DNA of 64,000 bases from Eledone cirrhosa (GCA_964016885.1 CAXHJY010000106.1:1-64000), one strand, 5' to 3'; positions 7,556 through 54,980 are shown, counted from the first letter of the stretch. Notes: generated by a model not told the origin, from the sequence alone. A program made the numbers and translations.

Positions 7556-7757
7556 AGTTTTAATATAGATGAGATTCTACAGGACTAGAACTGTTTCATT
7601 CATTAGAAATCATCAGGAATCTCTGATTCCTGATGATTTCTAATGAATGAAACAGTTCTAGTCCTGTAGAATCTCATCTATATTAAAACTTTTATACTCT
7701 GCTATGTATTGAGTACCTTACTTACTGTGGTTGCCTCCGATTCAACCCGGAATAACG
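7556..7757 (+). mobile_element. palindromic hammerhead-containing element, family H1 (Penelope-like terminus)
   Basis: Perfect 66-bp arms at 7556-7621 and 7625-7690, then a ~65-nt tail; flanked by (TA)n on both sides; related copies at 13240-13372, 21595-21652 (minus) and 50850-50970. Confidence 0.75.
7625..7673 (+). ncRNA. minimal type-I hammerhead ribozyme motif
   Basis: GATTC-CTGATGA-tTTC taat GAAt-GAAACAG ttctagtc CTGTA-GAATC: stem I 5 bp, stem III ACAG/CTGT, GUA cleavage triplet; base of stem II mismatched. Confidence 0.65.
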
Positions 7758-8227
7758 TATATATATAATATATATGTATAATATATATATATATATATAA
7801 TATATATATATAATATATATAATATATATGTATAATATATATATATATAATATATATATATAATATATATATAATATATATATAATATATATATATAATA
7901 ATATATATAATATATATATAATATATATATATAATATATATATATAATATATATATATATAATACATATATATATAATATATATATATAATATATATATA
8001 TATAATATAATATATATATAATATATTTATATATAATATATATATATAATATATATATATATAATATAATATATATATAATATATTTATATATAATATAT
8101 ATATATATATATATAATATATATATATATATAATATATATATATAATATATATATATAATATATATATATATATAATATATATATATAATATATATATAA
8201 TATAATATATATATAATACATATATAA

Positions 8228-8411
8228 TTGTTTCTACTTTTGGCACAAGGCCAGCAATTATCCCAGTGTATTACTGGTACTTTATTTTATCGACCCCTTA
8301 AGGATGAAAGGCAAAGTTAACCTCGGCGGGTTTTAACTCAGTCCGTAAAGGACGTAACTGTGCTGCAAAGCATGGCGTCCGACACTCTACCGATACTGCC
8401 AATCCACCGCC
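8228..8411 (-). mobile_element. tRNA-derived SINE family A, full length, inside (TA)n
   Basis: Same body and Pol III boxes as the other copies. Confidence 0.85.
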
Positions 8412-8891
8412 CTATATATATATATATAATATATATATAATATATATATATAATATATATATATATAAAATATATACATATAATATATAGATATATATAA
8501 TTTATATATAATATATATATATATAATACGGACAATGTATGTTTATATATATATATATATATATATATATATATATATATATATATATATATATATATAT
8601 ACATACATGAATTGTCCGTTCTGATTGAAAGCAATATCCCTGCTTAGCCAAGGAAGGCATCCTTAAAAAATATATGTGTGTATATATGTGTGTGTTTGTA
8701 TCTGCAATGGTGTCGGTCGTTAGTGTACCCATATATACATGCGTGAGTTTATGTGTGTTTCAGTTTAATTAATTTCATTTTGGTTTGTCCCAGGAGTTTA
8801 GGGGTCTTGTAGATAATTAATTTGAACAAAAGGCAGAAAATGGCGATGTTGTGGGTTCGTTTAATGATAGTGTTTAAACAATGCCCAGAAC

Positions 8892-9015
8892 CAGGGCCAA
8901 GATTTATTGGACTTTGAAATTAAAAATTGAGGGTTTGTTGAACATCCTAATTTTTCTCCATGAGCCCCCACGAAACTAATGTTCCCCGTGCGCCCAAGTT
9001 CTAAATCTGGCCCTG
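8892..9015. mobile_element. putative hAT-like MITE
   Basis: Termini CAGGGCCAAGATTTA / TAAATCTGGCCCTG; flanking 8-mers CCCAGAAC / CTCTGAAC match at 6 of 8 positions (possible target-site duplication). Confidence 0.55.
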
Positions 9016-9609
9016 CTCTGAACCCTTGGAGTTCAGGTATTTCGGGACAAAATTTGGTCCTTTAATCTTTCACCACACCACATCAGAATAATAATAATTA
9101 TTATCATTATAATGAAATATTAATTAATTATTAACATAATAGTAATTGAGGCGCCCCTATTCTTGTGGAGGACCTAGGATTCTGCCCAAGTCAACCTTAT
9201 AAATAATATAGTCCTGGAATGCTTTTGATCATATATCATATCATATCATATCACACGCAGACACACATACACACACACATACACATATACATATATATAT
9301 ATATTATATATATATATATATATATATATATATATATATGTATATATATATATGGGTGGGTATATTAACGACACCCTTCCAGATACAAAACACATACATA
9401 TGTATATATATGTATACTCACACACACGCGCATATATATATATATATATATACATGTTTATATATATATATATATACTATACATATATACATGTTTATAT
9501 ATATATATATATATACTATACATATATACATGTTTATATATATATATATATATATATTACATACATACATACTATACATATATACATGTTTATATATATA
9601 TATATATGC

Positions 9610-9780
9610 AAAGGGTTTCTGAAGTTTTCGTCTACCAAATTCCACACGCAGGTCATTGGTCAATCTCGTGGCTAAAGACAAACGAAGAATCTTGCCTAAG
9701 TTCTAAGTGGCCGAGCAGCAATGGAGAACCCAGAAACGCGTGTCTAGTAAGCGAACACCTTAACCACACAGCCACGCCTG
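9610..9780 (-). mobile_element. diverged tRNA-derived SINE (another family)
   Basis: Minus strand starts CAGGCGTGGCTGTGTGGTTAAG (A box) with a degenerate B box, followed by a CORE-like ...TTAGGCAAG... segment. Confidence 0.55.
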
Positions 9781-10119
9781 TCCAGAGTCTTTTGGGAAAC
9801 AGAACAGACACACGTACACAGAAAGGCACGACCCAAAGCAGGCCTACCCGAATCGCATACATATATATAACATAACACTAAACAGAAACACACACACATA
9901 TATATATATGGTATAACACTACTCAGGATTACACACACACACACACACACATATATATATATATATGATATAACATTACTCAGGATTACACACACACACA
10001 AACACACACACACTCACACACATAAATAAATATCTATATATATATAACATAACACTAAACAGGAACACACGCACATATATATGATATAACACTACACAGG
10101 ATTACACACACACACACAC

Positions 10120-12225
10120 ATAAATATATATATATATATATATACATATATATATCTATATATACATTATATATATATATATTATATATATATATATATA
10201 TATTATATATATATATATATATATATATTATATATATATATATATATATATATTATATATATATATATATATATATATTATATATATATATATATATATA
10301 TATTATATATATATATATATATATATTATATATATATATATATATATTATATATATATATATATATATATATATATATATATTATATATATATATATATA
10401 TATATTATATATATATATATATATATTATATATATATATATATATATTATATATATATATATATATATATATATTATATATATATATATATATATATATT
10501 ATATATATATATATATATATATATTATATTATATATATATATATATATTATATATATATATATATATATATATATTATATATATATATATATATATATAT
10601 ATATATATATATATATATATATTATATATATATATATATATATATATTATATATATATATATATATATTATATATAGAATATATATATATATTATATATA
10701 TATAGAGAGAGAGAGAGAGAGAGGGAGAGAGAGAGAGGTAGAGAGAAAGAGAGAGAAAGAGAGAGAGAGAGAGAGGGAGAGAGAGAGAGGTAGAGAGAAA
10801 GAGAGAGAAAGAGAGAGAGAGAGAGAGGGAAAAAGAGAGAAAGAGAGAGAGAGAAAGAGAGAGAGAGAAAGAGAGAGAGAGAGAACGAGAGAGAAAGAGA
10901 GAGAGAGAGAGAGAGAGAGAGAAAGAGAGAGAGAGAGATAGAGAGGGAAAGAGAGAGAGAGAGAGAGAGAGAGAGAGAGAAAGAAAGAGAGATAGAGAGG
11001 GAAAGAGAAAGAGAGAGAGAGAGAGAGAGAGGTGGGGGAGAGTATAACCTACACCCCCCTTCTTCCCTCATCCTCCAACATCTAAACACCTGCATAGCAA
11101 AGAAAGTTAAGTGGCGGAGGGAAGAAAATTACACTATAGGTCTCTCTCTCTCTCTCTCTCTCTCTCTCTCTCTCTCTCTCTTTGTGTCTCTATGTTTCTA
11201 TCTATCTACCTATCCCTCTTTCTTTCTAGCTCTCTGTTACTATCTCTCTCCCTCTATATTTCTATCTATATATCCCTCTCTCTCTTTCTAGCTTTCTCTC
11301 TATATATATTTCTCTCTTTCTCTCTCCTCCCCACCAAAGAAAAAAAAAATACGAACGGCTCGGGGTAGTTAATATTTCTATAGCAACAGCTCAGAGAGAG
11401 AGAGAGAGGGAGAGAGAGAGAGAATGACGTAGAGAAAGACAGAGAGAGATAGAATGCTAAAAGTAGCTAAAGTTAGAGGTAGGGAGCGAGAGTGAGAGAG
11501 ATGGTAGTGAAAGAGAGAGGGGTAGGGAAAGAGAGAGAGAGAGTGTTGAGAGAGAGAGTGTTGAGAGAGAGAGAGAGAGTAGTCAGAGAGAGAGAGGGAG
11601 AGAGCAAGAGAAGGAGAGTAGTGAGAGAGAGAGGAAGAGAGCAATAGAGTAGTGAGAGAGAGAGCAAGAGAAGGAGAGTAGTGAGAGAGAGAGAGAGAGC
11701 AAGAGAAGGAGAGTAGTGAGAGAGAGATAACAAGAGAGAGAGAGAGAGAGAGTAGTGAGAGAGAGAGAGAGCAAGAGAGAGAGGTAGTTAACGAGAGATA
11801 TACGCAGCGAGCAAGAGGGAGAGAGGTGGAGTTCGCGCGAAAGAGTGAGAGAGTGTGAGAAAGAGAAAGCGAGAGAGGTAGAGAGAGAGAGGTAGAAAGA
11901 GGGAGAGACAGAGAGAGAAAGAGCGAGAGAGAGAAAGAGCGAGAGAGAGAAAGAGCGAGAGAGAGAGAGAGCGAGCGAGTGAGAGAGAGGTAGAGAGAGA
12001 GAGAGAGCGATTGAGAGAAAGGTAGAGAGAGAGAGAGGTAGAGAGAGAGAGGTAGAGAGATATAGAGGTAGAGAGATAGAGGTAGAGAGCGAGAGGGAGA
12101 GAGAGAAAGAGCGAGTGAGTGAGAGAGAGAGAGAGAGAGAGAGAGAGAGAGAGAGAGAGAGAGAGGTAGAGAGAGAGAGAGTGAGTGAGAGAGAGAGAGA
12201 GTGAGTGAGTGAGAGAAAACGAGAG
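10120..12225. repeat. (TA)n, (GA)n and (TC)n microsatellite blocks
   Basis: Direct inspection. Confidence 0.95.
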
Positions 12226-54054: not shown

Positions 54055-54082
54055 TATTTGTATATATATATATATATATATT

Positions 54083-54286
54083 TAGGAACGAGTAGGACCC
54101 CGACGGCTGAGCTCAAGCCGTTTCGACGGCTAATTCTGGTCCAGAATTCAGTCCAGAATTAGCCGTCGAAACGGCTTGAGCTCAGCCGTCGGGGTCCTAC
54201 TCGTTCCTATTACCCACTCTGCTACCCTAAGTATTGAGTACTTTGGTGCGTTATGGTCCACCTGGTACCTTACCACATTTCCTTCT
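54083..54286 (+). mobile_element. palindromic element, family H3
   Basis: 57-bp perfect arms at 54083-54139 and 54153-54209; hammerhead 3' half; tail CACTC...GAGTAC. Confidence 0.75.
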
Positions 54287-54298
54287 ATATATATATAT

Positions 54299-54560
54299 AT
54301 ATCACAGAAAAAGAGAATCAGTGTTGCGACGAAAGGAATTTATTGGACATATTACAATTGTTTCTCGGGCGACCAGCTCGAGGCACGATCGATGTGGTGA
54401 TCAAACCTGACTCTGAAATCGCGCGGTCCTCGGATGTCTCGATTCTACGAAGCAGATTTTCCTATACCTACTTTTTCTGTGATATCATACTCTGCTCTAC
54501 GAGGGCATCGAGTGCTCATACGACCTACGGCATACGGACACATTAAACATCCAATACCAA
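54299..54560 (+). mobile_element. element with 15-bp inverted ends plus ACTC...GAGT tail
   Basis: ATATCACAGAAAAAG / CTTTTTCTGTGATAT (ends 54485), then cATACTC...GAGTGC; (TA)n flanks; no hammerhead core seen. Confidence 0.5.
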
Positions 54561-54677
54561 TTATATATATATATATATATATATATATATATATAGTTCA
54601 AAAGGAAAAACAAACAAACAAACACAGGAGTCAATAGTACATAGTGTTGTTAGCTTCAAGCTTGGTGAGAGTGGGGG

Positions 54678-54716
54678 AGGCTACGACGTTTCGGAGATAA
54701 GTCCTTCATCAGGAAA
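54678..54716 (-). ncRNA. hammerhead-like core
   Basis: Minus strand: CTGATGA-aGGA cttatc TCC-GAAAC gtc GTA; stem I is poor. Confidence 0.5.
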
Positions 54717-54930
54717 TTTGGGAGGAACTACGAGAGGGAGTAAAGAGGGGAGTTAATAGGAAAACATGAAAGGACGGGGAAAATAAAAATAAACATGAAA
54801 ATCAAAATAAATAAAAACAGAATTAAAAAGAATATAAAAAAAAAACAGAATATAATATATATATATATATATATATATATATATATATATATATATACAC
54901 ACCTTCATATTATTAAGGCTAAATAGTGAG

Positions 54931-54980
54931 TCTTGTTACTCTGGAGTTTCGCCTGTTCATCACAGGGTCAGCAGACAAGA
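54931..54980 (-). ncRNA. hammerhead-like motif (family H7), one core substitution
   Basis: Minus strand: TCTTGT-CTGCTGA-cCCTGT gatga ACAGGc-GAAACTC ca GAGTA-ACAAGA; perfect 6-bp stem I. Confidence 0.6.

Follow-up and report, generated by a model that had tools for sequence, protein, structure and literature searches.

What are the palindromes that lie in the (TA)n tracts of this stretch of Eledone cirrhosa DNA, and what sets their ends? The window, the whole stretch of 64,000 nucleotides (nt) analysed here (GCA_964016885.1 CAXHJY010000106.1:1-64000), covers the opening 64 kb of contig C133 in a 3.0 Gb assembly. A first-pass annotation had described hammerhead-bearing palindromes between positions 7556 and 54980 and ascribed them to non-autonomous hairpin or retrozyme-like elements that target TA microsatellites and are mobilised by Penelope-like elements (PLEs). 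The PLE link, the TA targeting and the hammerheads stand, but families A, B, D, E and F have no separate non-autonomous status: they are the truncated ends, each a pseudo-long terminal repeat (pLTR) plus a tail, of protein-coding PLEs. The retrozyme-like description is shown to apply for family C only, a non-coding tandem hammerhead unit. We propose, as the probable explanation, that the palindromes are truncated head-to-head (TA)n insertions of Hydra-type PLE terminal repeats and of this one non-coding unit, with their ends set through double priming at twin hairpins that are putative loading sites for reverse transcriptase (RT).

The families are named by their positions in the window (A, 7556; B, 49065; C, 12563; D, 14321/54083; E, 52369; F, 52775/19280; G, 54299). 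A genome search returned first-look candidates, which are not copy numbers, for A (1072), B (133), D (1195), E (1196), C (1533) and G (2040); the best copies of A, C, D and E have 97-100% identity, those of B 89-100% and those of G 82-89%, and family F was followed through incidental copies. Long copies joined to PLE open reading frames (ORFs) were found elsewhere in this genome for A, B, D, E and F. The family B master (L106) begins with (TA)n, an inverted tail-less pLTR, a 3' untranslated region (UTR) and a 5'-truncated 490-amino-acid (aa) frame covering the RT thumb and the endonuclease (EN); after the junction, a pLTR and tail are continuous with a 336-aa N-terminal frame, and L103 and L104 are laid out like L106. 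In family D the tail is continuous with the ORF start in L188, and an EN frame lies on the inverted side in L186. Family A shows the order ORF, UTR, pLTR in L173, L182 and L183, and by protein search its tail continues into the ORF in 19 of 30 loci, many with 758-aa frames. The EN end lies about 1.2 kb upstream of the family E pLTR in L212 and L215, and family F has one clear ORF-pLTR link (L183). Family X, which was not mapped in the window (L250-L259), has dozens of intact 785-aa frames; it is a very young Hydra-type family and forms tandem and head-to-head arrays. Separately, a hAT-like fragment sits within the 3' UTR of a family B element (L107:6800-8000) and recurs on several contigs. Two other leads were set aside: a search with the GIY-YIG family (10,596 candidates) led mostly to Neptune-like and other PLEs with ends unlike those of the window families, and the reading of family A as a tandem retrozyme (L023) was dropped, the downstream sequence being another repeat and the true masters having been found.

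To which PLEs do these ends belong? The Hydra clade is characterised by RW(K/R/T), DKT, a CxCx5C linker, CxxC before the conserved E and CxH after the conserved N (PMC8557442). Judged by their translations, four of the five PLE families of the window (A, B, D and F), and X, carry Hydra-clade motifs. The RWK motif reads VRWKT in X, IRWRA in A, LRWTA in B and LRWRT in D, so that its K varies; DKG is changed to DKT in X (ADKTS), A (SDKTK) and B (SDKTN); the CxCx5C linker precedes a C-terminal GIY-YIG domain in X, A, B, D and F; and CxxC and CxH surround the conserved E and N in the same five families and, by eye, in family E. The Pfam GIY-YIG match is weak (E 0.0013, in A only), five of six Hydra-type pieces having no Pfam match, and no CCHH motif was seen in the EN translations when these were read by eye. 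The Hydra-clade pLTR hammerhead is canonical in A, B and F, variant in D and non-canonical in E. These motifs, the C-terminal GIY-YIG, the canonical hammerhead and (TA)n insertion are common to the published clade and to our families, but there are many more families and copies here, and the tails measure 70-115 nt against the 30-40 nt stated for PLEs generally (PMC8557442). The octopus Hydra element of Craig et al. 2021, Hydra-1_Obim, has a published hammerhead that by eye matches none of the window hammerheads (PMC8557442). The homologues listed, at least 120, carry either no name or an uninformative one.

Each family has two sharp 3' ends: in D at position 390 (40 of 121 matches) and 463 (63 of 121), in B at 459 and 542, and in E at 483 and 568. 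The claimed TA targeting is borne out, since 331 of 364 ends adjoin (TA)4, whereas random locus windows give 15% and the window gives 22%; a longer stretch was inspected for family A. Head-to-head pairs combine one short and one long end in 105 of 115 cases; one arm was chosen via tail-bearing queries, and hence the real test is the shortness of its partner. The centres of the pairs vary, junction types differing in 13/33, 36/40, 17/21 and 21/21 pairs, and because the centre differs between copies the palindrome is not an inherited hairpin element.

Short, high-copy inverted arms with a 3' hairpin resemble miniature inverted-repeat transposable elements (MITEs) or Helentron-like elements, and such a non-autonomous element is a fixed unit with a constant interior, unrelated to RT ORFs. 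That the palindromes are DNA elements of this kind copied whole, or else assembly artefacts, is barely credible: they are continuous with RT and GIY-YIG ORFs, their centres are copy-specific and the two arms of one copy differ, so that a MITE or Helentron-type definition, with its constant interior and lack of ORF links, does not fit. Raw DNA reads from three other samples, whose organism is possibly another species, also bear on the question of artefacts. Both ends of family A recur there, as loose ends running into TA at 8410 and 8475-8476, and depth rises about sevenfold across 8323-8364; no strand-switch joint at the family A centre is listed in these reads, a point in favour of the artefact or DNA-element reading and equally a difficulty for ours. 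Raw reads also hold 76-78-nt head-to-tail repeats of the family A hammerhead segment (L177:8329-8408), possibly nascent mini-retrozyme arrays.

Could the mirror arm instead arise from single priming, with fold-back or self-priming afterwards and perhaps with an antisense template? Fold-back has been proposed for rotifer Penelopes (PMC3846280), many family A centres have loops of only 1-3 nt, and non-majority bases are often common to both arms (60 in B, 44 in D), counts that contain alignment-edge artefacts and were left unused for counting templates. Yet among the 105 short-long pairs the arm that reaches more than 10 nt further 5' is the tail-less one in 13 and the tailed one in 17; L103, L104 and L106 and the window copies at 12563 and 54299 are further examples of a longer tail-less arm, which in L106 extends more than 2 kb beyond the other, and an arm that is longer was not copied from its partner. 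In addition, the tail-less arm has a fixed end site of its own ahead of hairpin 1, and spacer-less centres at self-complementary words (e.g., window position 25783) suit the annealing of two ends. We therefore regard fold-back as quite unlikely.

The 5' ends of incidental copies cluster as well, at 271-279 in A (13/16), 326-337 in D (38/63), 406-416 in E (11/35) and 280-297 in B (5/17). Family A has a TATAAATA box 30 nt ahead of position 272, and the clusters in A and D suggest run-off at the 5' end of an RNA started in the pLTR, at a putative start site.

What, then, marks the 3' ends? The tails share a bulged hairpin composed of RCTC, an upper stem that varies, a bulge of two bases, T(T/C/A), and GAGY, and to this extent the claim that the families lack primary-sequence similarity fails for the tails. 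Fourteen such motifs in the window are located in tails. A loose descriptor finds 14 in the window versus 2.5-3.2 in shuffles (maximum 13), a count not used as a test because the descriptor was derived from these same sequences. An independent test used 78 loci of related proteins on metagenome contigs; 50 were retained, in which the protein match starts no later than residue 9 and has at least about 95 nt of the locus ahead of it. In 43 of these 50 Hydra-type loci the motif occurs within 200 nt upstream of the ORF, with at least two copies in 26 and spacings of 41-83 nt, and on the antisense strand in two; a stricter descriptor finds it in 38 of 50, against 1/50 antisense and 17/533 ORF windows. 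Across 69 distinct motifs selected by sequence alone, successive upper-stem positions pair in 67/69, 50/67, 39/47 and 23/38 cases versus 52, 28, 19 and 15 with shuffled partners, a pattern indicating that the upper stem covaries, although the counts are not independent events since some loci are near relatives; 52 of the 69 fold as drawn. Rfam at gathering thresholds found only two tRNAs in eight loci.

Run-on copies of B, D, C and X carry a second motif just past the long end, so that the RNA region reads hammerhead, hairpin 1, a 50-115-nt spacer, hairpin 2 and then the start of the ORF, whose place is taken in family C by the next monomer; the family C motifs fall outside the scripted descriptor and were read by eye. 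The spacing from hairpin 1 to hairpin 2 is 90 nt in B, 78 in D, 75 in C and 115 in X. Among TA-ended copies, the stop lies at most 12 nt from a hairpin for 63/67 of B, 107/111 of D, 20/24 of C and 22/24 of X, counts that contain a few alignment-edge values. Because the ends lie mostly 3-8 nt before hairpin 1 or 2, tail length tracks hairpin spacing. The metagenome contigs behave similarly: 42 loci were examined for ends, 30 had sequence common to both ends and 10 of these were dropped at contig ends, leaving 20 informative 3' copies, 12 of which stop 2-8 nt before the motif.

The same motif could be read as DNA, or after complementary DNA (cDNA) synthesis, if the endonuclease recognised it and trimmed an intermediate at either copy to give the two ends. 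Craig et al. credit EN-mediated resolution with the tail (PMC8557442), and the Penelope tail is required for EN recognition of plasmids, as recounted in PMC11167929; the strong conservation of the flanking GCTC and GAGCACT and the weak RNA folding of this genome's tails also fit trimming. We consider it unlikely, however, for the motif is strand-specific, with the bulge on one side and a covarying upper stem, and in vitro RT starts coincide with the tail ends in a Poseidon element (PMC11167929). Alternatively, the hairpins might serve translation, RNA stability or ribozyme control in a 5' UTR, the nearby ends arising by, e.g., TA-rich microhomology. Hairpin 2 lies about 45 nt before the ATG in many loci, the bases upstream of the hairpins are AT-rich, and family A departs from the twin-hairpin pattern; but non-coding family C retains both motifs and both ends, and the 3-8-nt offset holds across unrelated sequences, the GC-richer family D included, which makes a purely 5' UTR role very improbable.

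We propose that the observed end positions, pair geometry and motif reflect double priming at the twin hairpins. A precedent is PAc, a Poseidon element of the green anole, which in vitro cuts each of the two strands and extends them (Frangieh et al. 2024, PMC11167929); its tail is bounded by two internal RT starts, hammerhead cleavage is dispensable and a dimer is predicted (PMC11167929). By analogy with PAc we infer the cutting, RNA binding, dimer use and joining of our elements. A cut through both strands of the (TA)n tract by the GIY-YIG endonuclease would come first. Hairpins 1 and 2 would then be bound by two RT units, perhaps dimerised, which would begin copying 3-8 nt 5' of each hairpin, giving a tail-less arm that faces a tailed arm. 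The two cDNAs would end randomly or at the RNA 5' end near the pLTR promoter and be joined via short homology or a few added bases; joining at variable stops would create a new centre each time. The terminal copy would lose hairpin 2, and short stumps would also lose the promoter. Because hairpin 2 is not copied into the terminal end, stumps would be dead ends, mobility being kept by tandem or run-on copies only. Family C, every monomer of which has both motifs, would travel as a passenger on the PLE machinery. A broader proposal seems to us as apt to fail as to hold: that Hydra-clade PLEs integrate by obligatory double priming, in which tandem bulged hairpins place two RTs on double-strand-cut ends, set the tail equal to the hairpin spacing, make tandem pLTRs necessary for mobility and license retrozymes such as C, so that any two-hairpin RNA would enter (TA)n.

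Besides the alignment-edge values, the choice of loci by similarity to tail-bearing queries and the missing strand-switch joints mentioned above, several observations weigh against double priming at twin hairpins. The folds computed for four tails of this genome are weak (z -0.7 to -0.95) and frequently adopt another register. In family A, despite its two sharp ends, hairpin 2 is reduced to its 3' half, and a direct search by pattern found no full second hairpin. The head-to-tail read joints of family A fall at 8329-8336, 8-15 nt upstream of the TATA-inferred start, and are inconsistent with one exact start site. Family D includes one pair with two short ends and one with two long ends, and the long family C array is short-ended on both sides. 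Finally, the motif is absent near eight non-Hydra PLE ORFs, and the proposal may therefore not explain other clades.

How do the hammerheads relate to these insertions? A strict type-I descriptor finds nine complete motifs in the window, every one within these elements (7630+, 7616-, 12850-, 13246+, 19420-, 49162-, 49288+, 52875- and 53045+), whereas 200 local dinucleotide shuffles at each of two block sizes gave means of 0.035 (100-nt blocks) and 0.015 (300-nt blocks) with a maximum of 1. The bare CTGANGA core is only modestly in excess (25 versus 17-18 +/- 4). The first-pass annotation had counted roughly ten paired cores; a tenth motif, at 51102- (ATGATCAT loop), is seen by eye and lies below the stem II cut-off. 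Of the elements called hammerhead-bearing, those at 14321 and 54083 hold the 3' half only, the 5' half lying upstream in long copies, where in some family D copies it is a U3-A8-type variant; family E at 52369 has no canonical core by eye. No hammerhead was among the 150 of 533 Rfam window matches listed, which contained only microsatellite-driven microRNA (miRNA) noise. Most arms of A, B and F retain the whole hammerhead, implying that their template RNA was uncleaved, as for PAc. In family D (L186:8250-8400, L151) a putative promoter and start lie inside the large loop II of the hammerhead; a pLTR-started RNA would thus be without the 5' half of the ribozyme, which read-through RNA has.

Family C is a retrozyme-like unit with putative self-cleavage. 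Its 522-nt monomer carries one type-I hammerhead, has a longest stop-free frame of 86 aa and occurs as dimers, trimers and one array of 22 complete monomers, with limits at (TA)n and at the two end sites seen in the PLE families. Animal non-LTR retrozymes likewise consist of non-coding tandem monomers, each with a type-I hammerhead (PMC7229834; bioRxiv 10.64898/2026.07.22.740005), but retrozyme RNAs measure about 170-400 nt (PMC7229834; Li et al. 2026), and because 522 nt falls outside that range we say only "retrozyme-like". Family C shares the twin motif, the two ends, the TA target and the head-to-head layout with Hydra PLEs. No ORF link was found for C-like matches in 9 other loci, nor for family G in 30 loci. 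Relatives of C with 70-83% identity (L092, L100, L257, L063, L134, L171, L172 and L295) suggest several retrozyme-like subfamilies. Rolling-circle copying of the whole array is unsupported: the repetition of monomers 9-11 as 20-22, and of 12-13 as 15-16, points to local duplication.

Within the window, where microsatellites are abundant, the layout reported in the first pass, (TA)n, arm, spacer, arm, tail, (TA)n, is confirmed. The inverted arms lie at 7560-7620/7626-7686, 12574-12754/12897-13077, 14321-14414 and 14434-14515, 49066-49217/49233-49384, 52381-52441/52443-52503, 52784-52954/52966-53136 and 54083-54139/54153-54209, and after each pair come a tail of about 70-100 nt and a (TA)n tract. 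The remnants reported at 19280, 25575 and 54910 exist at 19261-19592, 25575 and 54898. The elements are as follows.

7556-7758, plus strand: family A stump; the inverted arm (7556-7620) has no tail, the centre is variable, and the sense arm carries a type-I hammerhead (core 7630) and is followed by a tail with hairpin 1 at 7696.
12563-13157, plus strand: family C (522-nt retrozyme-like unit); long tail-less minus-strand arm with hammerhead 12850-, shorter sense arm, tail.
13205-13372, plus strand: A-related single arm; hammerhead 13246, hairpin 1 at 13312.
14321-14598, plus strand: nested family D stumps; hammerhead 3' half, hairpin 1 at 14525.
19261-19592, plus strand: F-related stump; minus-arm hammerhead 19420, tail with hairpin 1 at 19512.
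20147-20296, minus strand: family J tail; bulged hairpin 20236.
21589-21653, minus strand: A-related tail-less arm fragment.
25575-25712, plus strand: family H remnant; UUCG-loop hairpin at 25662, related arm at 54898.
25783-25842, strand unassigned: family D palindrome remnant without spacer.
33035-33135, minus strand: family D tail; hairpin at 33122.
48144-48238, plus strand: family E tail alone; starts just 5' of hairpin 48154.
48880-49045, minus strand: family O tail; bulged hairpin 49034.
49057-49478, plus strand: family B stump; arm hammerheads 49162- and 49288+ (loop III TGCGCA), tail hairpin 1 at 49395.
50825-50975, plus strand: A-related arm and tail, decayed.
51050-51110, minus strand: hammerhead-like motif; core 51102, ATGATCAT loop.
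52369-52600, plus strand: family E stump; non-canonical core, hairpin 1 at 52518.
52620-52752, plus strand: D-related tail-less arm; U3-A8-type hammerhead, read by eye.
52775-53231, plus strand: family F stump; hammerheads 52875- and 53045+, hairpin 1 at 53151.
54083-54286, plus strand: family D stump; hairpin 1 at 54216.
54299-54562, plus strand: family G; the minus arm is long and tail-less and its hammerhead core is mutated, the sense arm measures 15 nt, and the tail bears hairpin 1 at 54489.
54898-55010, plus strand: H-related remnant.

Two further stretches look similar: at 49594-49880, inverted arms divided by a (CA)n(TA)n tract precede a tail-like stretch without a hairpin match, and at 19845-20060 (family I) a short palindrome and tail lack a descriptor match.

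How much of this was known? Thousands of short palindromes in such genomes should be annotated as PLE stumps, not as MITEs or miRNA precursors. PLE RTs are the sister group of telomerase, and through this kinship a hairpin-defined template start bears on template choice by such RTs. Published work already covers the inverted pLTR with its tail, insertion into TA, hammerheads in the pLTR and a Hydra element of an octopus. Penelope/Poseidon insertions resemble ours in their head-to-head copies, palindromic junctions, one-sided tail and TATA/initiator (Inr) elements in the pLTR (PMC3846280), and opposite-strand hammerhead pairs were described by Cervera and de la Pena 2014 (PMC4209133). In contrast to the self-priming account of PMC3846280, the tail-less arm here is often longer and both ends track a repeated cis motif; PAc, as presented in PMC11167929, has one AC-rich stem-loop, within the ORF, without a twin motif or an account of inverted insertion. 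The twin-hairpin end rule, common to the PLEs and to a retrozyme-like passenger, appears to be new. No description of the twin motif with its end rule was found in the literature searched or in Rfam, though Repbase, Dfam and supplements may hold one or list these families; the main text of Craig et al. 2021 (PMC8557442) does not contain the terms "hairpin", "stem-loop" or "bulge". The retrozyme mobiliser has only been proposed (PMC7229834; bioRxiv 10.64898/2026.07.22.740005), and both the mechanism of inverted tailed PLE insertions and the enzyme that moves animal retrozymes are stated as open in the literature consulted. Both questions become directly approachable by experiment through a motif that is small, portable and covarying and from which the two insertion ends can be predicted, and the intact young 785-aa (X) and 758-aa (A) frames of this genome provide test material.

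The window also contains other features. At 44625-46520 (minus strand) the frame of a non-LTR retrotransposon, truncated on its 5' side and comprising RT and a restriction-like endonuclease end, presumably R4/Dong-like by its motifs, adjoins (GTAT)n. A 56-bp tandem array of 24 copies at 2258-3626, near the start of C133, contains TAGGGTTAGG and is telomere-like. Young tandem arrays lie at 37535-41424 (119 bp), 20361-21293 (116 bp), 16476-18095 (45 bp) and 1259-1957 (116 bp), the 45-bp unit appearing to derive from a short interspersed nuclear element (SINE), and a tRNA-like match at 23005-23075 (44.2 bits, over the Rfam gathering score) is perhaps a SINE head.

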